The notes beneath the pieces were generated by a model. The model did not search any database and had not been told where the DNA came from. It saw only the letters and a list, made by a program, of their open reading frames with translations. A program made the translations under genes and the position numbers. Below are positions 3,078 through 58,846 of a stretch of DNA of 64,000 nucleotides, one piece after another. The stretch spans positions 141,302 to 205,301 of the forward strand of contig CAWJEP010000001.1 of the NCBI GenBank assembly GCA_963841935.1, written 5' to 3'. Each line of letters opens with the position of its first letter. Positions within the stretch are counted from its first letter, which is position 1. The DNA comes from an uncultured bacterium. GTDB lineage: Bacteria > Patescibacteriota > Minisyncoccia > Phycocordibacterales > UBA6065.

Positions 3078-3120
3078 ATGTGGATAGCCCTATTGGTAAA
3101 CGAATAGTATAATAAAGGCA

Positions 3121-4349: not shown

Positions 4350-4350
4350 C

Positions 4351-4683: not shown

Positions 4684-4703
4684 TCTCATAAAAATTTAGA
4701 CGC

Positions 4704-6413: not shown

Positions 6414-6444
6414 AGTGCGAAAACAGGCGTGATATAATTGTCCC

Positions 6445-6864
6445 ATGGCATCGAAAACCGAAAAACGAAAGAATCCAAAGGTTTTCATCGTCGACGCCGA
6501 CAAATTTATCATAAACTTGTACTCTGTCAGGTTTCAGTCGGGGGGCTTTGAGGTTGATTCCTCATTGAGTTCCCTAAAAGCTTTGGGGAAACTGCGTGCC
6601 GGCGCCGTGTATGATATTATGATTTTTGATGTCGGCATGCCCGATATGGACGGCATCGAGTTTTTGCGCGCCGTGCGCGCGGAAAATATTTTGCCGGAAG
6701 CCGCGCTCGTCGTGCTTACCAACGAATCGGCGCCGTCATTAATCGAAGAGGCCAGAAAACTCAAAGTGGACGGCTACATAGTGAAATCCACGAGCATTCC
6801 GTCAGAAGTTTTCGACACGGTGTCGAGAATCCATTTTTCAAAAAAACAAAAACATGCCGCTTGA
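6445..6864 (+). CDS. Stand-alone response-regulator receiver domain protein (PilH/CheY-like)
   Basis: Receiver motifs IVDAD ... IFDVGMPDMDG ... VLT ... K; no output domain; embedded between pilB and pilT. Confidence 0.7.
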   Translation: MASKTEKRKNPKVFIVDADKFIINLYSVRFQSGGFEVDSSLSSLKALGKLRAGAVYDIMIFDVGMPDMDGIEFLRAVRAENILPEAALVVLTNESAPSLIEEARKLKVDGYIVKSTSIPSEVFDTVSRIHFSKKQKHAA

Positions 6865-7921
6865 TTATCAAAAAGAGTTCGAATCGCTCATCGAGACCGT
6901 CATAAAAGAGTCGGCCTCCGACCTGCATCTTTCCGCGGACCGTTATCCGACCATTCGTGTTTCCGGATTTCTCTCGCCGCTACTCAACAGAAAAGTTTTG
7001 ACCAAAGAAGACATGGAAGCTTTCGCCAGCGTCATTCTTTCGCCGGACGACAAAGCTGTGTTTCTGCGAAACAAAGAAATAGATTTTTCCTATGAATACC
7101 AAAACAAGGGACGTTTCCGCGGAAACGGCTATTTTCAGCAGGGCTCGGCGGCTTTTGCTTTTCGTCTAGTTCCGCATCACATCAGGTCTTTTGAGGAACT
7201 GAATCTTCCGCCGGTACTCGAAACTTTCTGCCAAAAGCGCCAAGGTTTCTTTCTCGTCGTCGGACCGGTTGGTCACGGCAAGACGACGACTCTCGCGGCG
7301 ATGGTCGAGTATATCAACCAAACCCGAGCGGAACATATCGTAACCATTGAAGACCCGGTGGAATATTTGTACGAACCAAAGAAATCCATCATTGACCAAC
7401 GCGAAGTGCGCATGGACACTCTCGATTTCGGTTCCGCCCTCAGAAATGTTTTTCGCGAAGACGTAAACGTCATCCTTATTGGAGAAATGCGCGACATCGA
7501 TACCATGGCGACGGCGGTTTCGGCGGCGGAAACGGGACACCTCGTGCTCTCGACTCTCCACACGAACGACGCTGCGCAGTCAATCAACCGCATTATAGAC
7601 TCTTTTCCAGCGGCGCAGCAGGACCAGATCAGAGTTCAGTTGGCATCGACACTCACCGGGATATTTTCCCAACGCCTCGTGCCTAGAATTTCCGGTGGAC
7701 TCATTCCCGCTTACGAGCTTCTCGTGAATAACAATGCCACCGCGAACCTCATTCGAGAGAAGCGCGTTCACGAGATTCCCACGGTCATCGAAACAGGCAC
7801 GGACAACGACATGATCGACATGAACCGCTCCTTGGCCGAACTTGTGCGTCGCGGGGAAGTGACGCCGGAAAACGCGGCCGCTTATTCTCCGAATCCGAAA
7901 TCTCTTTCTCGTCTTATATAA
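6854..7921 (+). CDS. pilT: Twitching-motility retraction ATPase PilT
   Basis: Walker A GPVGHGKTTTLAAM, AIRNLIRE-like motif ATANLIREKR, ~355 aa. Confidence 0.9.
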   Translation: MPLDYQKEFESLIETVIKESASDLHLSADRYPTIRVSGFLSPLLNRKVLTKEDMEAFASVILSPDDKAVFLRNKEIDFSYEYQNKGRFRGNGYFQQGSAAFAFRLVPHHIRSFEELNLPPVLETFCQKRQGFFLVVGPVGHGKTTTLAAMVEYINQTRAEHIVTIEDPVEYLYEPKKSIIDQREVRMDTLDFGSALRNVFREDVNVILIGEMRDIDTMATAVSAAETGHLVLSTLHTNDAAQSINRIIDSFPAAQQDQIRVQLASTLTGIFSQRLVPRISGGLIPAYELLVNNNATANLIREKRVHEIPTVIETGTDNDMIDMNRSLAELVRRGEVTPENAAAYSPNPKSLSRLI

Positions 7922-7927
7922 ATTCAA

Positions 7928-9148
7928 ATGCTTTTCAACTACAAAGTCATAGACAAGGACGGAAATAAAAGCCAGGGCTCCATCGACGCCGTGTCCGTAG
8001 ACGTCGCCATTTCTTCTCTTCAACGGCGCAATTTTGTCATCAGTTCCATAAATCCCGCCGAAGGGGGAAAATCTTTTTTCAAAAGAGACATCAGTTTTCT
8101 CACGCGAATTTCGAACAAAGACGTCGTCGTTCTATCCCGCCAGATGGCGACGCTTTTCGAAGCCCAAGTTTCCGCCCTGCGCGTCTTCCGCCTGCTCTCG
8201 ACCGAAGTCGAGAACAAGCTTCTGGCCTCGGCTTTGGCGGAAATCGCCGACGATTTGCAAGCCGGCTCGTCCATATCCGCCGCTCTCGCCAAACATCCGA
8301 AAGCTTTTTCAACTTTTTACGTGAATATGGTCCGTTCGGGCGAGGAATCCGGCAAGCTCGACGAAACTCTGACTTTTCTCGCCGATTATCTCGACCGCAC
8401 TTATGCCGTCAACACCAAAGCGCGCAACGCTCTCATTTATCCGGCATTCGTTATCTTCACTTTTATTACCGTTCTTATCTTGATGCTGACTCTCGTCATC
8501 CCGCAAATCGCCACTATCATCACGGAGTCCGGAAGCGGCGCCCCGATACCTATTTATACGGAGTTTGTTATATGGCTTAGTAATTTCTTCGTGACCTACG
8601 GCTGGCTCTTGTTGGCCATTCTCGTCGTGGGTGGATTTTTCGCGATAAGATTTTTCCGAACGGAAACAGGCAAACGCTCCTTGGACAATTTCAAAATTAC
8701 CACGCCGTTCGTGAAGTCTCTTTATCAAAAACTTTATCTCTCGCGTATTTCGGACAACATGAACACCATGCTTATTTCCGGCATTCCGATGGTAAGGGCC
8801 CTCGAACTCACGGCCGACGTCGTGGGCAACGCCGTTTATCACGATATTTTGCTCGAAGCCATGGAAGCGGTAAAAGCCGGCCGTTCGATGTCCGACGCCT
8901 TCGACAATCACCGCAAGGAAATCCCTTCGATTATGATTCAAATGATAAAAGTTGGCGAAGAATCGGGCGAACTCGGCAAAATTCTGAAAACTCTTTCTCT
9001 TTTCTATTCCAGGGAAGTCATCAACGCCGTCGATACTCTTGTCGACCTCATAGAACCGGCCATGATTATCGTTCTTGGTCTCGGCGTCGGATTTCTCATG
9101 GCTTCCGTCCTCGTGCCGATATACAACTTGTCGTCGTCGATTTCCTAG
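7928..9148 (+). CDS. pilC: Type IV pilus platform protein PilC (GspF family)
   Basis: Two GspF repeats, ~400 aa, three TM segments. Confidence 0.85.
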   Translation: MLFNYKVIDKDGNKSQGSIDAVSVDVAISSLQRRNFVISSINPAEGGKSFFKRDISFLTRISNKDVVVLSRQMATLFEAQVSALRVFRLLSTEVENKLLASALAEIADDLQAGSSISAALAKHPKAFSTFYVNMVRSGEESGKLDETLTFLADYLDRTYAVNTKARNALIYPAFVIFTFITVLILMLTLVIPQIATIITESGSGAPIPIYTEFVIWLSNFFVTYGWLLLAILVVGGFFAIRFFRTETGKRSLDNFKITTPFVKSLYQKLYLSRISDNMNTMLISGIPMVRALELTADVVGNAVYHDILLEAMEAVKAGRSMSDAFDNHRKEIPSIMIQMIKVGEESGELGKILKTLSLFYSREVINAVDTLVDLIEPAMIIVLGLGVGFLMASVLVPIYNLSSSIS

Positions 9149-9199
9149 AACAGCAGAAATACGACAAAACGCCACTTATCCACAGGACGCCGTCGCGTG

Positions 9200-9229
9200 T
9201 TGCGGTACATCGTCTTGTCGCTGTATAAT
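9200..9229 (+). promoter_or_regulatory. Candidate sigma70 promoter for major pilin (TTGCGG-N18-TATAAT)
   Basis: Hexamers read directly about 50 nt upstream of the pilA start. Confidence 0.3.
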
Positions 9230-9278
9230 TGATTTTAGTCTCAAATACATTAATATTATCAACGATTAGCTACTCATT

Positions 9279-9743
9279 ATGAAAAATAAAGGTTTCACTC
9301 TCATCGAACTTCTCGTCGTCATTGCCATCATCGGCATTCTATCGGCGATAGTGCTCGCGTCTCTCGACACGGCGAGGAGCAAGGGTCAGGACGCCGCCGC
9401 TCGCGCCGACCTAGACGACGCTCGCGCTCAAGCGGAAAATTTTTATGATTCAAATGGCGTAAGTTATTCCGGAGTTTGTACTACCGCCGCGAACAACACG
9501 AAACCAGGTATCTTGGATATGATGAACGGCGCCGCTTCAGCTGAAGGGGGTACATATACGCCCGGCGCGGCACAAGGGTCAGCGACCGGTGTCGTGGTTT
9601 GTCACGACGAGGCATCGTCTTGGGCCGCAGCGACTCCTCTAAAAAATCCCGTCAACGGCGCGAGTTATTGGTGCGTGGATAACACGGGCACTTCTACCGC
9701 GGCAGTATCCGGTCTCGTCTCAAATTCCTACACTTGCCCCTAG
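9279..9743 (+). CDS. pilA: Type IV major pilin (prepilin with N-methylation motif)
   Basis: MKNKGFTLIELLVVIAIIGIL class III signal peptide; C-terminal cysteine pair. Confidence 0.8.
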   Translation: MKNKGFTLIELLVVIAIIGILSAIVLASLDTARSKGQDAAARADLDDARAQAENFYDSNGVSYSGVCTTAANNTKPGILDMMNGAASAEGGTYTPGAAQGSATGVVVCHDEASSWAAATPLKNPVNGASYWCVDNTGTSTAAVSGLVSNSYTCP

Positions 9744-9764
9744 TTTTTTTGATTCTTTCGCGAA

Positions 9765-9803
9765 AACCCGTCCGCCGGCCGGCGGACGGGTTTTTGTTTT
9801 TTT
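9765..9803 (+). terminator. Rho-independent terminator after pilA
   Basis: Perfect 12-bp GC-rich stem CCCGTCCGCCGG/CCGGCGGACGGG followed by a T-run. Confidence 0.75.
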
Positions 9804-9828
9804 CGGTAAAATATAAGATAATGTAACT

Positions 9829-10248
9829 ATGAAAAGAGGTTTCACTCTCATCGAACTTCTCGTCGTCATTGCCATCATCGGCATTCTATCGGCGATAGTG
9901 CTCGCGTCTCTCGACACGGCGAGGAGCAAGGGCGCGACCGCTTCTCTATATTCGGCTTTTCATCAGCTCGCGAATCAAGCGAGCATATATGAAAGTTCAA
10001 ACTCTAGTTTCGGCGCGAGTGTTTCCACTTGCAATGCCGGCGTCTTTTCCGACCCGATAATTCAATCTGCGGAGGCGAGCATAATTACCAACGCCGCCGC
10101 CGGCGCCACGCTCACGTGTTATACCAACGCCGCGGGCACGCAGTGGGCCATATCGGTCTCGGCGCTTCAGACTGGCGGTACATGGTGCGAAGACGACTCT
10201 TCGGCTTTTCGCGCCACCGTCGCGGAGCCGAGTGGCGTGTGCTCTTAA
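9829..10248 (+). CDS. Second type IV pilin paralog
   Basis: First ~35 codons nucleotide-identical to pilA (9291-9405 vs 9838-9935); C-terminal half divergent. Confidence 0.8.
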   Translation: MKRGFTLIELLVVIAIIGILSAIVLASLDTARSKGATASLYSAFHQLANQASIYESSNSSFGASVSTCNAGVFSDPIIQSAEASIITNAAAGATLTCYTNAAGTQWAISVSALQTGGTWCEDDSSAFRATVAEPSGVCS

Positions 10249-10252
10249 CAAT

Positions 10253-10714
10253 ATGAATAAGGCTTTCGAAAAAATGCGCATTTCGGGTTTTACTCTGGTA
10301 GAGCTCATGATAGTTTTGGCTATCATCGGTATTTTGACCGCGGTTGTCGCGGCTTCGACCAACGCCGCACACCAAGGCGCTCGCGACGAGCGCCGCCAGG
10401 CCGACCTCAAAGAAATTCAAATAGACCTCGCGCAATACGATAACTATTATGGCTACTATCCGGCGTCTTTAAACGCCATGTCGAGCTTCCTTGTCGGCGG
10501 ACAAGGAAGCATTCCCCTGGACCCTCTGACTAGCCAGTCATATTTTTACGCTCCCATAGGCACCAATCCCAACTATTCTTCTTATTGTGTCGGCGCGACG
10601 CTTGAGATTCAGACGCCGGACGGCAACGCTATGTCTGTTTGCACGGCTTCGCCGAACAACGTCGTTCTTCCTCAAGGTTCGACCGTGAATTATATGCAAC
10701 AGCCGCCGCAATGA
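10253..10714 (+). CDS. Prepilin-type pseudopilin
   Basis: GFTLVELMIVLAIIGIL motif; start ambiguous (ATG 10253 or 10274); stop overlaps the pilD start (ATGA). Confidence 0.65.
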   Translation: MNKAFEKMRISGFTLVELMIVLAIIGILTAVVAASTNAAHQGARDERRQADLKEIQIDLAQYDNYYGYYPASLNAMSSFLVGGQGSIPLDPLTSQSYFYAPIGTNPNYSSYCVGATLEIQTPDGNAMSVCTASPNNVVLPQGSTVNYMQQPPQ

Positions 10715-11493
10715 TTTTCGCGATAATCCTTTTTGTTCTCGGTGCCATTGTCGGAAGTTTTCTCAACGTCGTCATTGTCCGACTCGGCACTGGGTGCTCT
10801 ATTGTCCGCGGCCGTTCGAAATGTTTTTCCTGCGGACACAAACTCGTTTGGTACGATGTTGTGCCTTTTTTCTCGTATATTTTTCTTGGAAGAAAGTGTC
10901 GCTATTGCGGTAGCAAGATTTCCGCGAGATATTTCGTCGTTGAACTAGTGACGGCGGTTCTATTCTCCGCGACGGCTTTTTCCGGCATGCCTTCGACATT
11001 TCTTGGCCTGATTTTTCTTTTGCTTTCTCTTTCCATAATTTCTATCTTTGTCGCCATCGCTTTTTATGATTTTCGCCACAAAATCATTCCAGATGTTTTG
11101 TCTTACGCCGCCGCGCTTTGCGCTTTGTTTTTTTCCGTACTGACGATAATTTCCGCAGGCGCCACCTGGTGGCGCCTGCTTTCAGGCCTTATCGTTGCTT
11201 CTCCGTTTTTTTTCTTCTGGCTTGTATCAAAAGGCAAGTGGATGGGACTCGGAGACGCCAAGCTGTCTCTTTCAATCGGTTGGTGGTTGGGAATTTCTCT
11301 TTCCCTCGGCGCGCTCATATCGGCGGTTTTTTCCGGCGCTATTTTCGGCGTGGGAATTCTTTTTGCAGAAAAAATACGCGCGGGCAATGTTAAGTGGGGA
11401 AAACATGAGATACCTTTCGGGCCGTTTTTGATTTTTGGGGCTCTGATTTCGTATTTTTTCGGCGTCTCCATATTCACTTTTATCAGGTTATAA
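10711..11493 (+). CDS. pilD: Prepilin peptidase PilD (A24 family)
   Basis: Zinc-binding CxxC...CxxC (CFSCGHK...CRYCGSK), multiple TM helices, conserved Asp region. Confidence 0.85.
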   Translation: MIFAIILFVLGAIVGSFLNVVIVRLGTGCSIVRGRSKCFSCGHKLVWYDVVPFFSYIFLGRKCRYCGSKISARYFVVELVTAVLFSATAFSGMPSTFLGLIFLLLSLSIISIFVAIAFYDFRHKIIPDVLSYAAALCALFFSVLTIISAGATWWRLLSGLIVASPFFFFWLVSKGKWMGLGDAKLSLSIGWWLGISLSLGALISAVFSGAIFGVGILFAEKIRAGNVKWGKHEIPFGPFLIFGALISYFFGVSIFTFIRL

Positions 11494-13837: not shown

Positions 13838-15945
<2,108 letters not shown>

Positions 15946-18601: not shown

Positions 18602-19015
18602 TCATTTCTCTCCGGATTTTTCCGGAGAGTTTTGTTTTACAATTTGTCCAAGCCATCCGCCAAGCATTTTTCCGGCTCCATCTAAAATTTCTGAAAGAGT
18701 CTCGTATTTTTTGTCGCTTATTGATTTTGTTTCCCATAGAACCATGAGAAGTATTTTTATAGTATCTATTTTTCTCGTCGCAAGTTTAATCCACGGTATT
18801 TTTTCTTCTTTCGATAAAAATGTTGCCGTTACCGTTGCTTCTATTGTTTCGATAAACAATTTATCCAGCCGATTTCCAAGCGAATATTTCTGCGTTTTTA
18901 CTAATTTCTCGTGATACTCGTGCCAGAGTTTATATGCTGATTTAATTTTCTCTACCACTGGCAAAATCGCTCGGGGGGGGGGTAGCATTTGAAGAATGGT
19001 TCGGAGCATTTTCAC
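18602..19015 (-). CDS. avd: Avd-like accessory variability determinant (four-helix bundle, 23S rRNA IVS protein family)
   Basis: KYSLGNRLDKLFIETIEAT... and C-terminal SISDKKYETLSEILDGAGKMLGGWL match the IVS/Avd helix pattern. Probable start is the third Met (about 18988). Confidence 0.6.
   Translation of the reverse strand: MKMLRTILQMLPPPRAILPVVEKIKSAYKLWHEYHEKLVKTQKYSLGNRLDKLFIETIEATVTATFLSKEEKIPWIKLATRKIDTIKILLMVLWETKSISDKKYETLSEILDGAGKMLGGWLGQIVKQNSPEKSGEK
18973..18982. repeat. G10 homopolymer (C10 on the avd coding strand)
   Basis: Ten consecutive G; encodes PPP at avd codons 3-6 and lies 14-23 nt upstream of the RT start codon. Confidence 0.9.
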
Positions 19016-19979
19016 TCATACATACGATGATATCATCTCCGTCGAAAATCTTTTAGCTGCGTGGCGTGAATTTATTCGTGGCAAGAAAAATAAAAAAGAC
19101 GTCGAAGAATTTCAGTTTCGTCTTATGGACAATATTCTCGATTTGCATCTAGATTTAAAAAACAAAACATATACTCACGGCATATATCACGCTTTCAATA
19201 TAAATGATCCTAAACCGAGAAATATTCACAAAGCCACAGTACGAGACAGATTGCTCCATCACGCTATACACAGAGTTTCATATCCATTTTTCGACAAAAC
19301 GTTTATCGCTGATTCATATTCGTGCAGATTAAATAAAGGAACTCATAAAGCAATCAAAAGATTTATTTCTTTCAGTCGAAAGGTTTCAAAAAATAACACA
19401 AAAACGTGTTGGATTTTGAAATGCGATATACGGAAATTCTTTGCGAGTATAGACCATAGGATTCTCATTTCGATTTCGAAGAAATATATTCATAACGGAA
19501 ATATTGTCTGGATTATGGAAAACATAATCGGAAGTTTTGAAACAAAAAATGGTGTCGGACTTCCACTCGGTAATCTGACATCACAACTTTTTGTGAATGT
19601 TTATATGAATGAATTCGACCAATTTATGAAACACAGAATCAAAGCGAAATATTACATTCGATATGCCGATGATTTTGTGACATTGTCGCATGACAAAAAA
19701 TATCTTGAAAATCTGATACCAAAAATTTCTAAATTTCTTTCGGAAAAATTAAGATTATCTCTTCATCCTAATAAAGTCTTCATCAAAACTTTAGCCTCGG
19801 GCGTTGACTTCCTTGGTTGGATACATTTTCCAAATCACCGAGTATTACGGACGGCAACGAAAAAGAGAATGTTCAAAAGAATTTCAGAAAATTCGAAAGA
19901 AGAGACGGTTACTTCATATATTGGAATGCTCAAGTACGGAAATGCTTACATTTTAAAAGAACACATAAAAATGCTATAG
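18996..19979 (+). CDS. DGR reverse transcriptase
   Basis: RT motifs DIRKFFASIDH (motif A), GLPLGNLTSQLFVNVYMNEFD (domain 4 with the DGR-specific [IVL]GxxxSQ), YIRYADDFV (YxDD); 327 aa. Confidence 0.85.
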   Translation: MVRSIFTHTYDDIISVENLLAAWREFIRGKKNKKDVEEFQFRLMDNILDLHLDLKNKTYTHGIYHAFNINDPKPRNIHKATVRDRLLHHAIHRVSYPFFDKTFIADSYSCRLNKGTHKAIKRFISFSRKVSKNNTKTCWILKCDIRKFFASIDHRILISISKKYIHNGNIVWIMENIIGSFETKNGVGLPLGNLTSQLFVNVYMNEFDQFMKHRIKAKYYIRYADDFVTLSHDKKYLENLIPKISKFLSEKLRLSLHPNKVFIKTLASGVDFLGWIHFPNHRVLRTATKKRMFKRISENSKEETVTSYIGMLKYGNAYILKEHIKML

Positions 19980-33842: not shown

Positions 33843-33925
33843 AATCCGCCGGTATATTTTCTCGCTTGTGCGCTTCGCTCCGACTTACGCGCTCGAAAAT
33901 ATACCGGCGGATTTTGTTTTGCTTA
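33843..33925. terminator. Bidirectional terminator (long inverted repeat)
   Basis: ATCCGCCGGTATATTTTC ... GAAAATATACCGGCGGAT with T-runs on both strands, between convergent DoxX and ZIP genes. Confidence 0.7.
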
Positions 33926-34648
33926 CCCCGCGATTTTTATTGCAATAAACAGCACGGCCATGCCGATCAAAGTCATCGTGGTCGTCCAGAAAGTCGAATG
34001 TCTGTGGTAACTTTCCGGTAAAAGGTCGCTTGCTCCGATGTAGAGAAAGAATCCCGAGAACACTGCGAGCACGATTCCTAGAGTCGCTTCTGGCAGTGTG
34101 AAAAACATCGTCGAGATCACTCCGACTACCGGAGCGAGCGCGTCCACCAGAAGCCAGCGGAAAGCTTGTCTCTTCGAGCCGGCGTTTTTCAAAACAAGAT
34201 TGACCGTGTTTATTCCATCGGAGAAATCGTGGACCAAAACCGCCGTCGCCACGATTGCTCCGACTGCCGCCGACACTTGAAAGGCCAGACCTATTGCCGC
34301 GCCGTCGAGAAAACTGTGAATCGAAAGGGAACCGGCGCCGAGCCTGCCTCGGCGAACATGGTGATGTTCCTGACCCTCGTCTTCATCCTCGTGATGGTGA
34401 AGAGTGATGAGTCTGTCAAGAAGCATATATCCGGCAAATCCGAGAGCCACAACGCTTGTCATGTTTGCGACACCAAAGCTCGCGCCACCGAGGTTCAATG
34501 CTTCAGGCATAAGGTCGAAGAAAGCCACGGCGATGACGGCTCCGGCGGAGAAGCCCAAGATAAGATGCAGTCGGTCTTTGTGTTTTAGCGCGAATCCACC
34601 TCCGAGAAGGGTGGCAACGAACGTGGCGCAGGCGATGAGGATAATCAT
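33923..34648 (-). CDS. ZIP-family divalent metal (zinc) transporter
   Basis: Eight TM helices with His-rich loop HHHEDEDEGQEHHH, ZupT-like. Confidence 0.75.
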   Translation of the reverse strand: MIILIACATFVATLLGGGFALKHKDRLHLILGFSAGAVIAVAFFDLMPEALNLGGASFGVANMTSVVALGFAGYMLLDRLITLHHHEDEDEGQEHHHVRRGRLGAGSLSIHSFLDGAAIGLAFQVSAAVGAIVATAVLVHDFSDGINTVNLVLKNAGSKRQAFRWLLVDALAPVVGVISTMFFTLPEATLGIVLAVFSGFFLYIGASDLLPESYHRHSTFWTTTMTLIGMAVLFIAIKIAG

Positions 34649-34759: not shown

Positions 34760-35542
34760 TTGACGTTTTTCCGCCACGTTATGAAGATAAAAAAACTTTT
34801 CGAAAGAATTAAAAATCTGCCCAGCTACGCGCCTTCAAAAGAGGTTAACGGTTTGTTTTCCGAACTTGTTTCCAAAGCGACCAACACGAAAGACGAAGAG
34901 AGACTTACGCCAAAAGAACATATTCGCCTACGGGATATGTGCGCCGTAGCCGAATATGAATTGGAAAAACACTGGGCACTGAAAATTTCTTCCGGAGAAA
35001 ATGATTTACTCGATTTTCCTTATTATGAAAACTACGCCGACCTGACGAAAATCGAAATGAGCGCCTTGACTCTTTGCAAAAGCCACATGAAACACAGAAT
35101 ACTTTTTGTGGGAGGTGGTCCATTGCCTATGACGGCGATTATTTTGGCGAGAACGTACGGCCTCCGACTGACGGTCATAGACAATGATCCATTCGCGGCG
35201 GAATTGTCTTTGGCGGTTATTAGAAAACTCAAATTGGACAAAATGATTAAAGTCGTTCTCGCCGACGCCTGTTTTTTTGAAAAATACCAAAAATTCAACA
35301 CGGTTTTCGTCGCCGCCTTGGCCGGTGCCGGTTATGAACAAAAAGAGAGAATTTTTCGACGCATTAAAAATCGTTGTGAAAAAGAGACGCACATAATTGC
35401 TCGTTCAAGTGCCGGCAAGAGGGCCATGCTCTATGCGCCTTTGCCGAAAAGCGTTTACTCCATACTAGCGCCCATTTTTGAGATATCTCCGTATAACAGG
35501 ATAATTAATTCCGTCGTAATATTCAAAAATGCCGCCGAGTGA
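34760..35542 (+). CDS. Nicotianamine-synthase-like SAM-dependent aminobutyryl transferase
   Basis: ILFVGGGPLPMTAIILA ... FVAALAGAGYEQKERI ... RSSAGKRAMLYAPL resemble the NAS/CntL core. Confidence 0.6.
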   Translation: MTFFRHVMKIKKLFERIKNLPSYAPSKEVNGLFSELVSKATNTKDEERLTPKEHIRLRDMCAVAEYELEKHWALKISSGENDLLDFPYYENYADLTKIEMSALTLCKSHMKHRILFVGGGPLPMTAIILARTYGLRLTVIDNDPFAAELSLAVIRKLKLDKMIKVVLADACFFEKYQKFNTVFVAALAGAGYEQKERIFRRIKNRCEKETHIIARSSAGKRAMLYAPLPKSVYSILAPIFEISPYNRIINSVVIFKNAAE

Positions 35543-50809: not shown

Positions 50810-51418
50810 ATGAATAACATCATGTCCCCATCAGTTAGCGAAATCACAGCTGGTCAGATTGGCAAGCTTCAGGAAATCCTCGCTGCGCGTTTGCGTAAGT
50901 CAGGACTCCAGAGCGACGCTGTCCAACAGGTTCTCGAAAATCAAGGTGACGAAGTTGCCGACGAGATGGTCGGCGCCGTCCGTCGTCGTGTCGAAGCGGT
51001 CAGTAATATGATCGTTCGCCGTGTCACGGTCAACCGCTCTCGTTCTCCGCGCAATATGATCGCGGCGACAAAGAGAGCCGAGTATCTCGACAATAGCGTG
51101 GTGAAGACGATGCCGAGAAACGAGGGCGACGAAGTGGATGTATTCTTCTTCAAGGTCGGCCGGGATGTTCCCGTTGCCGACTTGGCGAAGGAGTATGAAC
51201 TCCGCGGCCTTGTGCCCGATCATTACGCCCAAGGCGCGGTGAACGAGGTCGATCCAGCATTTGCCGCCGAGCATCCGAACAGCACCCAGTGGCAGGACGA
51301 GGACGGCAACTTCTGCTATCTCACGTTCTTCAGGTGGGACGGCAAGCGCTACGTGGACTGCCGCCGCTACAACGCCGGTTGGCGCGTCCACTGGTGGTTT
51401 GCGGGGGTTCGCAAGTAA
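50810..51418 (+). CDS. Paralog of the DGR target family (possible remote/dormant target)
   Basis: Same promoter and 5'UTR element; RBS AAAGGAG; N-terminal helix pattern like targets 1 and 2; C-terminus ...GWRVHWWFAGVRK*; the 3' end TCGCAAGTAAGAACTAGG resembles the target-2 3' flank. Confidence 0.55.
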   Translation: MNNIMSPSVSEITAGQIGKLQEILAARLRKSGLQSDAVQQVLENQGDEVADEMVGAVRRRVEAVSNMIVRRVTVNRSRSPRNMIAATKRAEYLDNSVVKTMPRNEGDEVDVFFFKVGRDVPVADLAKEYELRGLVPDHYAQGAVNEVDPAFAAEHPNSTQWQDEDGNFCYLTFFRWDGKRYVDCRRYNAGWRVHWWFAGVRK

Positions 51419-51503: not shown

Positions 51504-52764
51504 ATTTCACATCATTGAGCGAAAGAATGACTCGGATGCCGTAGAACATCAAAATGCCGAGGACGACGAGGAGGCCTTGAATATCCGTGCCGATGAGGAT
51601 GAGAGTGGCGGCGACCGAGCTTATGATATAGGCGAGAGGACGAGCCGTTCGGAATAGGGTGATCTTTTCTATGTCTCTGCCGTTGATTTTCTTGAAGAAA
51701 TAAGTGTCGGACATTACTTCCGCGGACGCCGCGCCGACGCGAGTGGTAAATAGCAAAATTCCCCAAATGAAAACATTGCCGTCGCCGTATATGGCGCAGA
51801 GCAAAGTGCCGACCGCCATTATGAGAAACCCGAGAGCGATAAATCTTTTCTCACCCCAGCCGTGGTCTGAATAAAATCCTTCAGGTATGCCGACCAAGAC
51901 GAAGGGCAAAAGCATTATCGAAAAAAGTATGCCGATGGTCGTCCATGAGAATCCTATGTATTGGTGGAGATATATCGGCGTGTAAATAATCATCCACGCG
52001 TAGAAGAATTGAACGAGGATTTCGCAAATATAAATACCGCGCATATCTCGGTCTTTGAGAAATTCCGATATAGCCGTCCAGAAACGCGCTTTGGAATATT
52101 CAGGGTCTTTAAATCCCTGAAAACTTCCGGCGATGAGAACGATTGATAGAGTGAGAATGCCGGCGATGGCGAAGAAGACGCGAGAAAAATTATCACTCGA
52201 GCCGAGGAGAAGCGCCGCTATAAGCGGCGCGAGGAGCCAGCCGAGGTTGTCGGCGGTGTAATAAATACCGCGAATGTCGCCGGTTTTGTTTTGGGTGGAG
52301 AAATCCTCAAGCAAGGCGTCGAGGGTAAAATTGATGAGTGCAACAGAAGCGAAGCTCGTCATAAAAAATACTATGACGGCAAGAGTGCCCGGCGCGAAGG
52401 CGAGGACGATGAGCGAGACGAATTCAATGAGACAGAGGGCGAGCGTTACGACAATATTGCCGAAGCGCCGCAGAACTCGGAGGACGCAGGCGAAAGCGAT
52501 AAGAGCAAGAATGGAAGCGGCGGTGTAGACCACGCCGACCATGGCGTTGCCTGTAAATTGAGCGAGGAATGTTGAAGTGATGTATGTCGGAATCGCTGAA
52601 TGAAGGTTGAAAAGAAAAGCGATGAGGTAGAGCGCAAACCTGCTTTTTTTCCATGTCGTGTCGGGCATGGGAAAAGTATAACCTGCCAGTGTCAGGCGGG
52701 CAAAAGAAAAAGCGAACATATTTCTACGCTCGCTCTGATTTTGATTCAGACTTTTTGAGGACAA
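51502..52764 (-). CDS. MFS transporter (12 TMS)
   Basis: Hydropathy pattern, 420 aa. Confidence 0.7.
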   Translation of the reverse strand: MSSKSLNQNQSERRNMFAFSFARLTLAGYTFPMPDTTWKKSRFALYLIAFLFNLHSAIPTYITSTFLAQFTGNAMVGVVYTAASILALIAFACVLRVLRRFGNIVVTLALCLIEFVSLIVLAFAPGTLAVIVFFMTSFASVALINFTLDALLEDFSTQNKTGDIRGIYYTADNLGWLLAPLIAALLLGSSDNFSRVFFAIAGILTLSIVLIAGSFQGFKDPEYSKARFWTAISEFLKDRDMRGIYICEILVQFFYAWMIIYTPIYLHQYIGFSWTTIGILFSIMLLPFVLVGIPEGFYSDHGWGEKRFIALGFLIMAVGTLLCAIYGDGNVFIWGILLFTTRVGAASAEVMSDTYFFKKINGRDIEKITLFRTARPLAYIISSVAATLILIGTDIQGLLVVLGILMFYGIRVILSLNDVK

Positions 52765-53488
52765 AGGTAATCCCGCATCCTAAATACTTTCCTAAACACC
52801 AATCTAATGGGTAGGAAAGCAGTCGTGACATGATAGGACTTACAACATTTTGACGCCAGTTCTTTTTTAAGGAAAGCGGCGGTATAACAGCGAAACCCTT
52901 AGTATCAAGGATCACAAAACCTTGTTGAACAACAATCTTCTTAAAGTCCCAGTAAGTAAATTGTTCACGCCGGTAAAGAGATTGGTGCCGCGCAAGGCCC
53001 CTGTTAATAATTGTTGTCCAAATTACATAGAGCGAAAGCTTATTGGCCATACTTACGGCAGCAATCCCCGATGGCCTGAGTACTCTATGGATTTCCGAGA
53101 TCATCTTTTCTATGGAAGGTACGTGCATTGAAGTTCCTATAGATACAATGACATCGAACTCAGCTTTCCCAAAAGGCATATCCATCAAACTACCATCAAT
53201 CAGTCTAGATGAAGTCACTTTTTGCGTCAGTTTGAGCATTTCTTGATTGATATCAAGGCTCGTAACTGAGTATCCAAGACTTTCAAGAAGTCTTGAATGG
53301 ATCCCCCTGCCACATCCAGCATCAAGCGCTTGCAGACCTTTTGTGCTGGGGATATTTTTTTTCAACTGCTTCCAAACATACAGCGCTTGTTTCTTGAAGA
53401 ACCATGAGCGGTTATCATGATCCTCTTCAGGATTCCACCAACTCACATCGGCATTCTTAAAGAATGTCTCGATCGTTTTATGATTCAT
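52724..53488 (-). CDS. Class I SAM-dependent methyltransferase
   Basis: LDAGCGRGIHS motif I. Confidence 0.7.
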   Translation of the reverse strand: MNHKTIETFFKNADVSWWNPEEDHDNRSWFFKKQALYVWKQLKKNIPSTKGLQALDAGCGRGIHSRLLESLGYSVTSLDINQEMLKLTQKVTSSRLIDGSLMDMPFGKAEFDVIVSIGTSMHVPSIEKMISEIHRVLRPSGIAAVSMANKLSLYVIWTTIINRGLARHQSLYRREQFTYWDFKKIVVQQGFVILDTKGFAVIPPLSLKKNWRQNVVSPIMSRLLSYPLDWCLGKYLGCGITFVLKKSESKSERA

Positions 53489-54314
53489 CTTTCATTCCTA
53501 TGGTTGAGGCAAAGCGCCCTTCGATTTTCTTGGCTTCTGGGGTTCCTGCAGCTAGATTGGAGAAAAACATTTTATGCTCGCAAACAGTACAAAGATTCGT
53601 ATCGTATATATTTTCTGCCAATACCCCCTCTGACAATAATTGCTGGGTCAGGAGCGATTGTAAATCAAATCTATTATTGGCGAAAAAAGAAGCTGATGTC
53701 CCATAATAAACGCCAACATCATCTTTGATTCTATTCCAGGCACCCGATAATTTCAGGTCATAATGGCATTTCCGAATAGACGGGAAAATGACAACCTCGA
53801 TATCTTTTGGATTGGAATGATACTCTTGAACCATGCAACGAACGGTGCTAGTCAATATTTGATTTACAGCACCGATGAGTCCCGCATGAGCCAAGGCGCA
53901 AACAGACTTCTGTTTGTCGAAAAGACCCACAGCCGCACAGTCAGCAGAGAGGATGGTGGGGAATACATTCTTCATGTCAGTTACTACCGCATCAATTCCC
54001 GCCTGCCATTCTGGGTTACTATGCGCAGGATTTATAACCGGGAATAAATTTCCACCCGAAACATACACTCCCGTATCGCTTTTCAACAACGGCGATGATT
54101 TCGGTAAGCTAAGAACTCGATTGCTGTGAGACAAAGGCATAAACAAAATATGTTTTTTATCTACGCCAAGCTCTTCTGCGAGATCGCCCCTTTTCTGAAG
54201 TACAATAGTTTGATCTCCAGTACGAATGGATAGATTACCAAGAGTTTTGGTGGAGAATCCATGAACTAGTTTTTTGTGTTTTTTCCAAAATGCTACGCTA
54301 TATAGTTTTTTCAT
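53478..54314 (-). CDS. YfiH/PgeF-family (DUF152) purine nucleoside/peptidoglycan-editing enzyme
   Basis: LSADCAAVGLFD ... ALAHAGLIG motifs. Confidence 0.65.
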   Translation of the reverse strand: MKKLYSVAFWKKHKKLVHGFSTKTLGNLSIRTGDQTIVLQKRGDLAEELGVDKKHILFMPLSHSNRVLSLPKSSPLLKSDTGVYVSGGNLFPVINPAHSNPEWQAGIDAVVTDMKNVFPTILSADCAAVGLFDKQKSVCALAHAGLIGAVNQILTSTVRCMVQEYHSNPKDIEVVIFPSIRKCHYDLKLSGAWNRIKDDVGVYYGTSASFFANNRFDLQSLLTQQLLSEGVLAENIYDTNLCTVCEHKMFFSNLAAGTPEAKKIEGRFASTIGMKDES

Positions 54315-54425
54315 GTTTTATTCAGTTTTTAAGATCCATATTATCCATGGTGATAATAACATCTCTCTTGTATTAGGTCAACTGAAGCCTTAAGTTTTTC
54401 CAAAAAATCCGAGCTTCCCCCTTTT

Positions 54426-54491
54426 CTATATCCCAAGCAAAACAGGAATGACGAGAGGTCTCTTTGCCGTCGATTGGAAGAGAAAGCGCGA
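54426..54491 (-). repeat. Diverged copy of the RNase J 3' end (last 21 codons + stop), non-coding context
   Basis: Encodes SRFLFQSTAKRPLVIPVLLGI* vs rnj SRFLFQATAKRPLVIPVLLGI*; about 25% nt divergence, almost all synonymous; no usable in-frame start nearby. Confidence 0.8.
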
Positions 54492-54517
54492 TTCGCGATT
54501 TTTTCCAAGATGATGTC

Positions 54518-54555
54518 TCGGGCATATGAAAAAGTATAGCAAATAAAAAAGACCC
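54518..54555 (-). terminator. Rho-independent terminator for the 54563-55153 gene
   Basis: AGACCCGC-loop-GCGGGTCT followed by TTTTTTA on the minus strand. Confidence 0.65.
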
Positions 54556-54562
54556 GCCACGA

Positions 54563-55153
54563 TTATGTAGTGCGGGTCTTTCGGCTGATGATTCCCACTA
54601 ACGGAACGGACGCGTGAAGGAATATGCAGAGCGTGGGGTAGACGAGGTCGATCCATTGATGCCTCCACCTCAAGATGACCACCTCCATCGCAATTACATA
54701 TGATCCGCACCACATCCACCAAGGGAATGGATCTTCGCATGAAGGCGTTTTCCAAACATTCCTCCATGTTGGAATAAATCCCGTAATGATAGCGACCTGA
54801 ACAATCAGATTTCCGTAAGTGGCCGTTGTCATTTTCCAAACGACGGCCGCCGCGATTCCTATTGTCAGCGCGCACCAGTCTATGGCGTTCAGTTTTTTAA
54901 ACTTTCCGCCGGAGAACGCCAAGACGAATGTTCCGACGCAAAGCAGAATGTTCGCGAGAGGGATGAGGCTTTTCCAGATATCACCCGACGCGACGAAGTA
55001 ACTTGAAGTGCTGATGATGGCGATTACGGACCAAATGGCCCATGTCGCCCCGTTTGGTTTGGTCGTGCCTCGGATTACATTGCGGTTGTATTCTATGTAA
55101 GCGTAAGCATACAGAGCGCAAGACAGGGCCGCCAGAATTTTGCTAGGTTGCAC
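54563..55153 (-). CDS. Hypothetical integral membrane protein (six TM helices, Trp-rich)
   Basis: Hydropathy only; lies between the two rnj-tail copies. Confidence 0.5.
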   Translation of the reverse strand: MQPSKILAALSCALYAYAYIEYNRNVIRGTTKPNGATWAIWSVIAIISTSSYFVASGDIWKSLIPLANILLCVGTFVLAFSGGKFKKLNAIDWCALTIGIAAAVVWKMTTATYGNLIVQVAIITGFIPTWRNVWKTPSCEDPFPWWMWCGSYVIAMEVVILRWRHQWIDLVYPTLCIFLHASVPLVGIISRKTRTT

Positions 55154-55251
55154 AGAGTGCCTTTTGTTGAGGGTTGTTTCTTTGAAATTGGTTCTTCAAT
55201 GTCGAGGAGCTTTCATTTTGGAATATATCACACTAAAACCAAAAGTCAAAT

Positions 55252-57084
55252 TTATATCCCGAGAAGCACCGGAATGACGAGAGGACGTTTAGCAGTAGCT
55301 TGGAAAAGAAAGCGGGACAAAGCGTCGGTAACCGTGCCTTTGACGAACTCGACATTGATTGGGTGGGCGCCGACGGTCGAGTCTTCGATGGTTTTCTTTG
55401 TGATGTGTCTAGCTTCACGAAGCAAATCTTGCGATTCGCGCAAATAGACGAAGCCGCGGGAAATGATGTCCGGAGATTTTTTGAGATACCCCGTGCGGGC
55501 GTCAATGACGGCGATGACGATAAACATTCCGTCTTGGGCGAGCATTTGTCGGTCCCTGATGACGACTTCTTGGATGTTGCCGATGGAGAAACCATCCACC
55601 ATCATCACGCCGTCGCCGGCTTTGACCGGAAGCTTTACGAATTTCGTGCCATTCTCTTGGATTTCCATTATGTCGCAGTCGTCGGGAACGATAATATTTT
55701 CTTTCGGCGTGCCGAGAGATTCCGCCAGGTCGGCGTGGAGGCGAAGCATATAATGGTTGCCGTGAATCGGCATAAAGAATTTGGCTTTTATTTTTTTGTG
55801 AAGCCATTCTATTTCGCCTCTATTGCCGTGGCCGGTCGAGTGGATGTAGACGTCCGATGTGCGGTAGTGGATGATTTTCGCTCCGCGCCTCGCGATATTG
55901 TCTTTGAGTTTCTGGACGCTTTCTTCGTTGCCCGGGATGATTGAAGACGAGAGCAAGACCGTATCGCGGTTGTTGAAATGAATCGTTTTGTGTTCCTTAG
56001 TCGCCATTCTCATAAGCGCGGCGAAATCTTCGCCTTGAGCGCCGGTGGCAAGGACGACGATTCGCTCCGGCGGATAGCGGTCGATATCGGTTGAAGGAAT
56101 TATGGTGTCTTTTTTGACTTTCAATACGCCCGCCAAGATGGCAATATCCACGTTGGCTTTCATGCTTCGTCCTTCCGTGACTATTTTCTTTCCGTATTTT
56201 TCCGCTGACATGATAATGGCGCACATGCGTTCGAGCTGACTGGCGAAAGTGCCGATGATGAGACGGCCTTTGATGGCGCGGATGATTTCGTCGAGGTTTT
56301 TATGAACTAGACGTTCCGGCGTGGAGAATCCGGGATTCTCAATGTTCGTCGAGTCGGTCATGAGAAGCAGAACTTTTTGTCCGTCGAAAATCGAGTAGCT
56401 TTTTTCTTCGGCTTCAGTCGGCACGCCGTCCACGTGGTCGAGTTTGTAGTCGCTCGGGATTACCATCCAACCGAAGGGCGTTTCGATAACGAGACCCATG
56501 GAGTCCGGCACCGTGTGAGTGACGGCGAAAAATCTCACGGGAATATTTCCGAGCTTCAAATGGTCGCTGTTCTCGACGATTTTGATATTGAGCGGCGCGA
56601 GATGGGGGAATTCCGCCTGTCGTTTCTGAATCATTATGGCCGTGAGATTTCTCGTGTAAATCGTCGGGTTGCCTATGCGGTCGATAATGTATGGTAATCC
56701 GCCGATGTGGTCGAGGTGGGCGTGAGAGATGACGAGACCGCGGATTTTGTCTTTGTTGTCCTCAAGATATTTTATATTGGGTAAAATGTAATCAATACCC
56801 GGCGTGTTCTCGTCCTTAAACTGGAAGCCGGCGTCAATGACTATGATGTCGCCTTTATATTCGACCGCAGTCATATTGCGACCGATTTCTTCCACGCCGC
56901 CGAGCGGAATAATGCGGATGTTGTCTCCGGCGGACGGGATTGCCGCCGCCGGCGTTCCGTCCGCCGACGGATAAGTATCTTTGCGTGCGAAATGCGAGCG
57001 GCGCATTGGCGGCCGTGAATTTGGTCTTCGGTTCGGCCGTCTTTGACCTCTCGGTCTCGCCGGCGCTGGGGTGTTTCTTTCCAT
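55252..57084 (-). CDS. rnj: Ribonuclease J (metallo-beta-lactamase/beta-CASP)
   Basis: HxHxDH motif VISHAHLDHIGG, beta-CASP, C-terminal KRPLVIPVL tail; 55-aa Arg-rich N-terminal extension if the first ATG is used. Confidence 0.85.
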   Translation of the reverse strand: MERNTPAPARPRGQRRPNRRPNSRPPMRRSHFARKDTYPSADGTPAAAIPSAGDNIRIIPLGGVEEIGRNMTAVEYKGDIIVIDAGFQFKDENTPGIDYILPNIKYLEDNKDKIRGLVISHAHLDHIGGLPYIIDRIGNPTIYTRNLTAIMIQKRQAEFPHLAPLNIKIVENSDHLKLGNIPVRFFAVTHTVPDSMGLVIETPFGWMVIPSDYKLDHVDGVPTEAEEKSYSIFDGQKVLLLMTDSTNIENPGFSTPERLVHKNLDEIIRAIKGRLIIGTFASQLERMCAIIMSAEKYGKKIVTEGRSMKANVDIAILAGVLKVKKDTIIPSTDIDRYPPERIVVLATGAQGEDFAALMRMATKEHKTIHFNNRDTVLLSSSIIPGNEESVQKLKDNIARRGAKIIHYRTSDVYIHSTGHGNRGEIEWLHKKIKAKFFMPIHGNHYMLRLHADLAESLGTPKENIIVPDDCDIMEIQENGTKFVKLPVKAGDGVMMVDGFSIGNIQEVVIRDRQMLAQDGMFIVIAVIDARTGYLKKSPDIISRGFVYLRESQDLLREARHITKKTIEDSTVGAHPINVEFVKGTVTDALSRFLFQATAKRPLVIPVLLGI

Positions 57085-57126: not shown

Positions 57127-58846
57127 TTATTTTTGGACAAATACGCTCCAGACTCTGTCCGTGTCTATGTACCACTGCCAAATATTTTCAAACCTGTCGG
57201 CAGATACGGTAATCGGTCCGAGAGAAATATTTTTTATGTCGCTTGGCACGGCATATATGAAATCCGGCGAATAAAGAAACACCGCCGGCGTGTCGGAAGC
57301 GACATAAGACAGAAATTGCTGCTCGTCTTTTGTTTGCGCCGCGACGTTCGAAGTCTGTCTCATATCGGAGAGAACTTTGTCTGCCTTGACGTTTACGTAT
57401 TCCGCCACGTTGAGTCCCGGATAATTTCTCTGCGACGACGCCCAGAAAGCGTAAAGGTCCGGATGGTCGCCGAGCACCATGCCGAGAAGCAGTGCGTCGT
57501 AGTTTCTGGTCTCTACCACCGTCTGCGCTAGGTCGCTTTGGTTGAAAACTTTCACGTCCACCTGCGCGCCGAGACTACCCCAAGCGTCTTTCAAAATATC
57601 GGCCGTGGCGGAAAGGTCGCTGATGTCGCCGGTCGATACGGAAAACGAAAGCGGCGTTGACGTTTTCTTTGAAGTTTTCTCCAGAGTTCCATTTATGTTT
57701 TTCCAGCCGTCTTTCGAGAGCGTGCTCGACGCCAATGCGAAAGAAGCGCTGTCGGTCGCGGTGTCGAGGGACGTCGTCAGAGGTCCGTCCAGAGGCACGC
57801 CGTATCCGTCTAGGACATTTTTGACTATTTCTTGCTTCGGCGCCGATTCATCGAGAGCCACGCGGATGGCTTTGTCCGCGAAAATGGCGTTTTGGTTTTG
57901 GTTGAAGAAAAGCCCAAAGATTCTGGTAAAAGGGGACACAAGCGTTTTCATGCCCTTTAATTCGATGGGCATGGTCGAAGGGTCGATGTTCGCCATAGCG
58001 CATCTACGGCGCCGTCCTTCAAAGCGTCGAAAGCGCTTCGCTCTGGTCGGAGAAGATTTTAAAACGATACCGAATCTATAAACGGCGCGCCTAGAGAAAA
58101 TCTCGTCGAAAGCCGACATATCGTATTCTATCGGCACACCGGAAGAATCGCGCGAAATCGAACTGACTTTATAAGGACCGGACCCCACGGGCATGGTGTT
58201 TTCGTCGGTAAAAGAGAAATTATCATCGCTCTCGTTTTGCCAAATGTGTTTCGGTAGAATGCCGAGAGTCGTGTCGTATACAAAAAAAGCGTATGGCTGT
58301 TTGAGCGTGAAAGAAATTTCTTTCGGAGTTTATGACTTTGACGGAGACGCCATTCCAGTCGGCGAATTCTGGACTTTTAAGCGCCGGGTCTTCGGCTTTG
58401 AGCACGGTAAAAGCGATGTCATCGGCGGTTACCGGTGTGCCGTCTTGGAAAGTCGCGGTCGGTTTTATGAAAAAAGTGTAAGTCAATGTGTCGGTCGAGA
58501 CGCTGTAAGACTCCGCGAGGTCAGGTATTAAAGAACCGTCAGGCATCTCGCGCGTAAGCCCCGAATATACCAAAGAGGAAAGGTCGCGGTCGCTGTCGGA
58601 CATGGCCAAAAGGGGATTTATGAAGCGCGGCGTACCGACTAGGGCTTCGGAAAAAGAGCCGCCGCGCGCCGGTATCGTGACGAGGAAAAAATCATTGATT
58701 TTTACGAGAAGCCAGAGGACACTTGCCGTAAAGATTAGCGCGGCGGCGAAAAAAGCCGCTCGCTCGGCGGCCGAGAAAGTCTTGACGGTATCTTCTATGT
58801 TATCGAGCCGCTTGATGCGCCACTCTTTTTTGAAAAAAGATTTCAC
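57127..58846 (-). pseudogene. ABC substrate-binding protein family 5 (OppA/DppA-like), +1 frameshift near plus 58317-58324
   Basis: The 58223-58846 frame gives TM anchor ...DGTPVTADDIAFT...SVKVINSERN. The 57127-58194 frame read upstream gives EISFTLKQPYAFFVYDTTLGILPKHIWQNESDD...NTMPVGSGPYK. The switch is at a GAAAGAAAT run. Confidence 0.75.

Follow-up and report, generated by a model that had tools for sequence, protein, structure and literature searches.

Genetic elements such as phage 21 and e14, which insert into the 3' end of the icd gene of Escherichia coli and supply a substitute end, bring their own integrase and a defined core, and they leave behind a functional gene, a duplicated end that differs mostly at synonymous sites and the original end at the far border. 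Recombination hot spots, or variable slots between conserved core genes, are likewise a general concept, and their content is as a rule replaced by double homologous exchange, which leaves no scar. In homology-facilitated illegitimate recombination (HFIR), described in Acinetobacter baylyi, Streptococcus pneumoniae and Pseudomonas stutzeri (PMC3240628; references within PMC5361080), the incoming DNA is anchored by homology at one end, its other end is fused to unrelated resident sequence through a short microhomology, and foreign genes are carried in without a recombinase in bacteria that possess DNA-uptake machinery. HFIR anchored in a conserved 5' part has been proposed for the orphaned 3' gene regions of Rhs and type VI secretion system (T6SS) loci (PMC5361080), and at Rhs, contact-dependent inhibition (CDI) and T6SS loci, for example in the T6SS arrays of Vibrio cholerae, the arrival of a module pushes the previous gene end downstream, where it is kept as a fossil behind the new module (PMC5361080). 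The locus considered here shares features with all of these. It lies in a stretch of 64,000 nucleotides (nt), referred to below as the window, from the genome of an uncultured member of the Patescibacteria (candidate phyla radiation, CPR; assembly GCA_963841935.1, contig CAWJEP010000001.1, positions 141,302 to 205,301), and it concerns the 3' end of rnj, the gene for RNase J, a second and now non-coding copy of which is found downstream, beyond the gene for a small membrane protein.

The origin that we favour for this arrangement, and hold to be probable with considerable room for doubt, is that DNA from a sister lineage, comprising rnj, a gene for a protein with seven transmembrane helices (the 7-TM gene) and the start of a major facilitator superfamily (MFS) transporter gene, was imported with rnj as its anchor and was closed by an illegitimate join in the tail of the resident rnj. 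The two unlike ends of the insert, one of them presumably in a homologous anchor and the other at a short microhomology, and the carriage of foreign genes without a recombinase are as in HFIR. There are nevertheless differences, as HFIR has been observed experimentally whereas here it is read from a natural scar, the "foreign" DNA is here the syntenic region of a lineage diverged by ~15-30% and not unrelated DNA, and the illegitimate join lies upstream of where the homologous region ends, with the result that 63-66 nt are duplicated. The orphaned end kept behind a new module recalls the Rhs, CDI and T6SS loci, but there the genes are for toxins and immunity under diversifying selection, and the part displaced is the variable tip of a toxin along with the immunity gene. 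In the present case a housekeeping ribonuclease would have had its conserved tail displaced, and the cargo gives no hint of a toxin or immunity function. The functional gene, the mostly synonymous differences of the duplicated end and the position of the original end at the far border are shared with the phage 21 and e14 type of element, but the present locus lacks an integrase and has at its far border a piece of the neighbouring chromosomal gene, joined out of frame at a microhomology. In comparison with variable slots in general, the flanks (rnj and the MFS gene) are conserved around content that differs per lineage, but one exchange would have missed its second homologous arm and so left a joint that can still be read. 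On this reading the locus is an ordinary kind of recombination scar, unusually legible, and it represents a known process and no new system.

The Patescibacteria are nearly all uncultivated and gene exchange among them is known mainly from bulk statistics, and the locus offers an example resolved to the base pair, in which syntenic DNA from a lineage diverged by ~15-30% would have been spliced in via a microhomology of a few bases and without mobile-element machinery. If confirmed, it would be natural evidence that transformation-type recombination, its illegitimate variant included, shapes the accessory gene content of this group, and it would suggest a testable substrate design, with one homologous arm, for genetic work in transformable relatives.

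The duplicated end of rnj

On the minus strand the order of features is rnj, 98 nt with a promoter-like site, the 196-amino-acid (aa) 7-TM gene, its terminator, the promoter and first 12 codons of an MFS gene, the tail of rnj (21 codons and stop), 112 nt, pgeF, a methyltransferase gene and then the real MFS gene (Table 1). The upstream rnj is full length in comparison with its relatives and its product is 94% identical to that of L001 (the L-numbered loci are regions fetched around the closest RNase J proteins, together with further homologue contexts). The stretch 54426-54491 agrees with the rnj end in use at 51 of 66 bases, both being on the minus strand and in register with the rnj stop codon (78% identity over the 65 nt of the alignment, at a spacing of 826 nt), whereas the top scores in 20 shuffles of the 10-kb region were 29-34 of 66, and the second copy that a sequence-only reading of the window had reported is therefore real. 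The similarity ends abruptly upstream of 54491 and 55317 and directly past the two stop codons. Twelve codons differ, 11 of them synonymously (TAA/TAG counted) and one by an A/S replacement, the A being unique to the rnj end in use and the S being present in the downstream copy and in all six other lineages. When 14 random substitutions were simulated in 63 nt, a result with at most one aa change was obtained in 0 of 200,000 trials. This bears out both the almost purely synonymous divergence that had been noticed and the conclusion drawn from it, that the two ends are those of different rnj alleles; it is confirmed that they diverged while coding, under purifying selection.

Read from 54491 to 54426, the downstream stretch gives SRFLFQSTAKRPLVIPVLLGI followed by a stop, and it had been described as a copy of the last 22 codons. 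The duplication of the rnj end stands, but the rnj-derived part amounts to 21 codons and the stop, since the first codon, TCG, lies on a fusion joint. Most likely this tail is the resident, native end of rnj, displaced when the inserted DNA brought in the end now in use, which is also the order of events that had been proposed. A tblastn search found no further rnj remnant upstream of it. Comparison of both copies with the rnj 3' ends of relatives had been suggested as a way of recognising the native one and did not tell the two apart, as all lineages are roughly equidistant over the 66 nt (50-57 of 66); similarly, when the sequences past the stop codons were compared across lineages in search of a native context for either copy, every lineage was found to diverge immediately past the stop. 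Within the repeat there is a 14-nt core, CCTCTCGTCATTCC, that is identical in both copies (54445-54458 and 55271-55284, minus strand).

Two open reading frames (ORFs) that take in the downstream copy were considered as genes and rejected. A 149-aa ORF (54426-54875) that terminates in the copy runs across part of the cargo gene in a different frame, has no Pfam match and gave a single marginal, repetitive match among 1.84 billion representative proteins, whilst a 50-aa ORF that begins at the ATG of the MFS fragment reads the rnj tail out of frame.

The fusion joint and the truncated MFS gene

The downstream rnj tail is directly abutted by the beginning of an MFS gene and the two are fused out of frame. 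The joint connects the region of MFS codon 12 to rnj codon 589/590, which is the precise point where similarity stops on either side. None of the other rnj lineages has the G of position 54489, but G is the fixed first base of the MFS Ala codon; the joint therefore falls within CGCT, and to judge from the sequence the MFS fragment is the most likely source of the G of the TCG "codon". A search with a degenerate pattern for the WKKSRIA+FLFQ fusion gave one match in the window and none in the metagenome_contigs or genome_contigs collections.

The MFS fragment is of a foreign type. In nt it is 82-86% identical to the region where the MFS gene starts in L001 and L002, and its coding bases match those of L017 and L018 at 33-34 of 35 positions as against 27 of 34 for the window's own MFS gene and L013, from which type it also differs by a 3-nt indel. 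An in-situ tandem duplication of native sequence is therefore excluded. Routes through a tandem or circular intermediate that involve other DNA are rather unlikely. In one, rnj tail, cassette and MFS start would have been duplicated via the microhomology and one of the cassettes later swapped by double-homologous recombination; in the other, an excised circle (rnj tail, 7-TM gene and MFS start, closed at the microhomology) would have integrated by a single crossover in the rnj tail. An MFS start followed by an rnj end is exactly the novel joint that a tandem duplication or the closure of a circle would create, and the identical 14-nt core, with three shared derived states, is what might be expected around a point of crossover or conversion. 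However, more steps are required, no second joint was found in the metagenome or genome collections and no such fragments in other lineages, and the circle would have had to recombine within 66 nt at 78% identity with no more than 14 identical bases, which, in view of the minimal identity requirements of RecA, is a poor substrate.

It had been suggested from the sequence that the locus is the footprint of an element integrated in the 3' end of rnj, and this part of the earlier interpretation is not supported, as neither a recombinase nor an att site was found in the insert or among the ORFs scanned and the far border consists of a sister-clade MFS promoter with 12 codons. A site-specific integrative element that targeted the rnj 3' end, brought a substitute end within its attP and has since shrunk to one cargo gene is accordingly highly improbable, even though a duplicated end with synonymous differences does resemble what is left by elements that restore 3' ends and the 14-nt core in the repeat would fit such an origin. 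No recombinase is present in the insert, and no integrase, transposase or att structure was detected among the long ORFs scanned across the window; the search for integrase or attachment remnants that had been proposed thus yielded nothing, and the neighbouring genes are housekeeping genes in an order syntenic with that of relatives. There are no tRNA genes near the locus, the nearest being at 62478, and apart from tRNAs no Rfam family was found in the window. The right boundary is no element end but the promoter and 5' part of a chromosomal MFS gene, joined out of frame, and the 14-nt core has no att-like context. Genes homologous to the 7-TM gene occur as ordinary parts of chromosomes in varied settings, and the cassettes that occupy the same position in other lineages have no repeats.

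The remaining possibility that bears on the joint is that it is a chimera of two co-occurring strains produced in assembly or library construction, for which we see next to no chance. The source is a metagenome-assembled contig with likely indel errors (frameshifts in the SBP5 and ligA genes and a homopolymer difference), and a Logan contig that covers the joint ends 14 nt past the copy. However, this independent Logan assembly (run ERR11630400) reproduces the window from 56584 to 54412, joint included, at 99.95%, and the composition of the flanks is continuous. The overlap at the joint, at 4-7 nt, is far below any k-mer and cannot represent a k-mer assembly join, and two copies that are only 78% identical cannot collapse or bridge in assembly. 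Of the two findings that the sequence-only reading had named as fatal to it, an expressed second gene has thus been rejected and an assembly duplication is unlikely, the joint having been reproduced independently.

In almost all lineages a TATACT box ends 7-9 nt before the MFS ATG (L013, L014, L017, L018, L024 and, in the window, both 52677-52682 and 54533-54538). From its sequence this box resembles a -10 element and may serve a leaderless or very-short-leader mRNA. The orphaned box in the window now faces pgeF and the methyltransferase gene.

The rnj-MFS interval and the direction of the proposed transfer

In a more distant clade (L003, L004 and L006) the gap between rnj and the MFS gene measures 13-102 nt and the order SecG, SBP5, rnj, MFS is conserved. 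In the window's own clade the content of this slot differs per lineage and begins directly after the rnj stop codon: a 190-aa ORF in L001, L015 and L018, a 121-aa ORF in L002 and L017, a 159-aa ORF in L013, a HAD hydrolase gene in L014, GrpB and NADAR genes in L016, and the 7-TM gene, pgeF and the methyltransferase gene in the window. No one of these cassettes is similar to another, and fragments of an rnj end or an MFS start inside the slot were found in the window only. The rnj-MFS interval is a hypervariable slot between two conserved neighbours. A very unlikely extension of the circular route is that the slot is a site of cassette exchange, with the rnj tail and the MFS start as arms and with cassettes that travel as circles bearing a joint of MFS start to rnj end, of which the window would be a two-cassette intermediate; if true, this would be an integrase-free analogue of the integron in ultra-small bacteria.

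On both sides of the locus the closest relative of the window is L013 (~81% nt identity over ~10 kb), and the quartet-informative sites group the window with L013 both in the C-terminal part of SBP5 (85/12/27) and in the MFS gene (149/8/10). L024 belongs to the other MFS clade, its MFS protein having 79-84% aa identity to that clade as against 67-71% to the window and L013. In L024 a 7-TM gene with 72% identity, a terminator hairpin, a TATACT box and a full MFS gene (ATC GCG CTC TAC) follow one another, the hairpin and T-run being in the same place as the terminator of the window but not homologous to it in sequence. Because the order matches, the succession of 7-TM gene, terminator and MFS start is a contiguous piece of a sister-clade chromosome, and the arrangement in L024 is the predicted donor architecture.

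The nt identity of the window rnj to the L001/L018 type is 85.3% overall and 87.4% in the last 162 codons, as compared to 82-83.5% for the other lineages, and a first quartet analysis suggested that the window rnj is L001-like (63 vs 20 and 22). The rnj phylogeny is discordant with that of both flanks (SBP5 and MFS), with a switch near window position 57000; in the flanks L018 clearly pairs with L017 and the window stands apart (quartets 76/11/26 and 56/23/30). Most likely the window rnj is partly or wholly of the imported allele type, the identity pattern being compatible with import but no proof of it. The rnj alleles are 83-87% identical in nt, as against ~68% for the MFS genes between clades, and it is this far greater conservation that makes rnj a feasible homologous anchor.

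On the favoured reading, the resident chromosome would have had the order rnj, pgeF, methyltransferase, MFS, and sister-clade DNA with the order rnj', 7-TM gene, terminator, MFS' would have been taken up, probably by natural transformation. The left part of the incoming DNA would have recombined homologously within rnj, the best-conserved gene nearby, whilst its right end, broken 12 codons into MFS', would have joined illegitimately at the microhomology TC.CGCT of 4-7 nt, at a point of the resident rnj that lies 21 codons ahead of the stop. The outcome would be an intact rnj with an imported 3' end, a 7-TM gene equipped with both a promoter and a terminator, the stub of MFS' and the orphaned native tail, with the resident cassette and MFS gene downstream left untouched, ~0.83 kb added and nothing deleted. 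What the locus shows directly is the composite joint, the foreign type of the MFS stub, the divergence of both rnj ends as coding sequence, the variability of the slot and, among the ORFs scanned, the lack of integration machinery; the side of the donor, the position of the homologous crossover and the uptake of DNA by transformation are what we infer from it. The window does contain a type IV pilus cluster (1953-11493, plus strand) with PilM, a PilB-like ATPase, a PilT-like ATPase, PilC and a prepilin peptidase (PilD), and no ComEC, DprA or ComFC was found among the window ORFs scanned. Com genes are conserved across the CPR, and competence is documented for Saccharibacteria only, which undergo natural transformation with homologous recombination (PMC10633639).

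A number of observations weigh against this sequence of events. The orphan tail is not nearer to L013 than to other lineages (50-55 of 66 for all), although 66 bases at near-saturated synonymous sites cannot tell to which lineage it belongs. The 14-nt core holds three adjacent non-consensus synonymous states, CCT CTC GTC where most others have CCG CTT GTG, two of which are absent from every other sampled lineage and the third of which occurs only in L017 and L002; such shared states are unexpected for independent alleles and suggest a short conversion or a mosaic patch between the copies, which the favoured reading does not account for. The donor is unsampled, the best 7-TM homologue being 74% identical, and the 142 nt upstream of the 7-TM gene of L024 hold no rnj end. 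In the rooted rnj analysis the window sits in a trichotomy, its grouping with L018 has 51% bootstrap and the quartets with an outgroup are 38/41/38, the strong discordance coming instead from L013, the rnj of which groups with L017 at 100% bootstrap; as most of the rnj signal is due to L013, the phylogeny alone does not prove that the window rnj was imported. What is mostly described for HFIR is an insertion coupled with a deletion (PMC3240628), whereas the event here would be a pure insertion that duplicates 63-66 nt. Finally, what is described is a single event in a single genome.

The structure is symmetrical, so the joint alone gives no polarity, and the transfer might have run the other way. 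The resident would then have had the order rnj, 7-TM gene, MFS (of the L001 type), and the incoming DNA, anchored downstream, would have consisted of the rnj tail, pgeF, the methyltransferase gene, the MFS gene of the window/L013 type and what lies beyond, its left end, 21 codons before the donor rnj stop, being joined to codon 12 of the resident MFS gene; the downstream rnj copy would be the foreign one. This accords with pgeF and the methyltransferase gene being compositional outliers (third-codon-position GC content, GC3, of 0.38 and 0.42) and with a rooted rnj phylogeny that does not show the window rnj to be foreign. We nevertheless consider it unlikely. L013 is the partner of the window on either side of the locus (SBP5 upstream, MFS and beyond downstream), and the reverse polarity consequently needs either a resident that was already mosaic, with an MFS gene of the other clade, or an import of >7 kb; homologous exchange within the MFS gene would have had to work at ~68% nt identity; and the order 7-TM gene, MFS gene is seen in the other clade (L024) and not in the clade of the window and L013.

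The rnj of L013 (Ga0265338_10006073, 3306-5138) groups with that of L002 and L017 at 100% bootstrap whilst its SBP5 and MFS genes group with those of the window. This rnj has thus also been exchanged between lineages, with a breakpoint near the rnj 5' end.

Cargo, cassettes and other features of the window

The features of the locus are collected in Table 1.

Table 1. Features at the rnj-MFS interval, in window coordinates
Feature	Position	Strand	Details
rnj (RNase J, 610 aa), intact, in use	55252..57084	minus	Pfam PF00753 Lactamase_B, PF22505 RNase_J_b_CASP, PF17770 RNase_J_C
rnj 3' end in use, upstream repeat copy	55252..55317	minus	SRFLFQATAKRPLVIPVLLGI, then stop
Sigma-70-like promoter just past rnj stop, facing 7-TM gene	55222..55249	minus	TTGACT-16-TATATT with TG; consensus scan 10/12, pattern match only
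Cargo (7-TM) gene, 196-aa membrane protein of an uncharacterised family	54563..55153	minus	7 predicted helices
Intrinsic terminator of cargo gene	54540..54582	minus	11-bp GC-rich stem and T-run; sequence, RNA fold
Foreign-type MFS gene fragment	54485..54546	minus	TATACT box 54533-54538, ATG 54523-54525, first 12 codons (MPETSSWKKSRI, then Ala-Leu codons)
Illegitimate fusion joint	54485..54491	minus	4-7 nt microhomology TC-G-CGCT: MFS ATC GCG CT / rnj TCN CGC T
rnj tail, most likely displaced, 21 codons and TAG	54426..54488	minus	RFLFQSTAKRPLVIPVLLGI, then stop; non-coding now
Sigma-70-like promoter upstream of pgeF	54353..54381	minus	TTGACC-17-TATTAT; consensus scan, pattern match only
pgeF/YfiH-family gene (Cu-oxidase_4), first gene of second cassette	53478..54314	minus	Pfam, NCBIfam
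S-adenosylmethionine-dependent methyltransferase gene	52724..53488	minus	Pfam Methyltransf_11/25; 11-nt overlap with pgeF
Resident MFS transporter gene, 388 aa	51502..52668	minus	ATG at 52668; Pfam MFS_1

The cargo had been described as a six-TM membrane protein and a terminator and nothing else. Seven helices are predicted rather than six, and whilst membrane protein and terminator are indeed present they are not the only content, as the promoter and 5' fragment of the MFS gene are there too. The terminator lies between the cargo gene and the downstream rnj copy, which does follow it as had been stated. The cargo protein has no Pfam or NCBIfam match. It has 44 homologues, mostly in unrelated contexts (P0123, P0125 and P0130, for example, are in unrelated neighbourhoods), and among the contexts examined only P0122/L024 shows the donor-like order of 7-TM gene and MFS gene. 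An AlphaFold2 model with a pLDDT of 92.6 has seven helices, and a Foldseek comparison with the PDB matched it to the KDEL receptor, cystinosin and SWEET at TM-scores of 0.57-0.62 (probability 1.0, E ~0.02, identity 10-13%). On the strength of this model a fold like that of the SWEET, PQ-loop and KDEL-receptor proteins appears plausible, and the protein may tentatively be taken for a small-solute transporter of the SWEET/PQ-loop fold class.

A check on the composition of the insert, suggested earlier as a means of recognising foreign DNA, pointed elsewhere. The GC3 of the 7-TM gene, at 0.60, is typical of this genome (rnj, the 7-TM gene and the MFS gene are all at 0.60-0.63), so GC content cannot mark it as foreign, and the outliers are instead pgeF (z = -2.4) and the methyltransferase gene. 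These two form a conserved overlapping two-gene module. The nearest homologues of pgeF have 60-63% identity and are in other genomic contexts, always with the methyltransferase gene after them, and the pairing is also found in L020-L023. None of the contexts of pgeF homologues checked is near rnj, and the resident order of rnj and pgeF is hence not confirmed elsewhere. The module is probably an earlier acquisition from a lineage of lower GC content. The resident MFS protein is 88% identical in aa to that of L013 and 67-69% identical to those of the other clade.

Beyond the resident MFS gene there is a second variable slot. A 202-aa ORF at 50810-51418 (plus strand; GC3 0.69), which has no Pfam match, lies between the MFS gene and the next conserved methyltransferase gene; L013 has nothing in this position and L001 has an unrelated 116-aa gene.

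Two genes of the window are split. The SBP_bac_5 gene (57127-58846, minus strand) is divided into ORFs at 58223-58846 and 57127-58194 by a frameshift at ~58280-58330, its orthologue in L001 being intact (576 aa), and the version in the window is either a pseudogene or the product of a homopolymer indel error. The gene for NAD-dependent DNA ligase, ligA (13844-15900, plus strand), is split in the adenylation domain into 13844-14551 and 14569-15900, which are in different frames. The Logan contig L019 (ERR11630400_353157), which ends at window position 54412, 14 nt past the orphan rnj stop, disagrees with the window by a single A within the run GAAAAGGGGG, which may mark read-level heterogeneity at the boundary of the two cassettes. 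Taken together, the two splits and the difference in the A-run hint at indel errors in the assembly.

Away from the locus, a reverse-transcriptase gene (RVT_1, 18996-19979, plus strand) occupies the kilobase of lowest GC content in the window (GC 0.33, GC3 0.33). It is clearly foreign in composition and could be part of a retron, a group II intron or another reverse-transcriptase element. A gene of the nicotianamine synthase family (NAS, 34760-35542) adjoins one for a ZIP metal transporter (33923-34648), and the two may constitute a metallophore and metal-uptake pair, which would be unusual for a reduced CPR genome.

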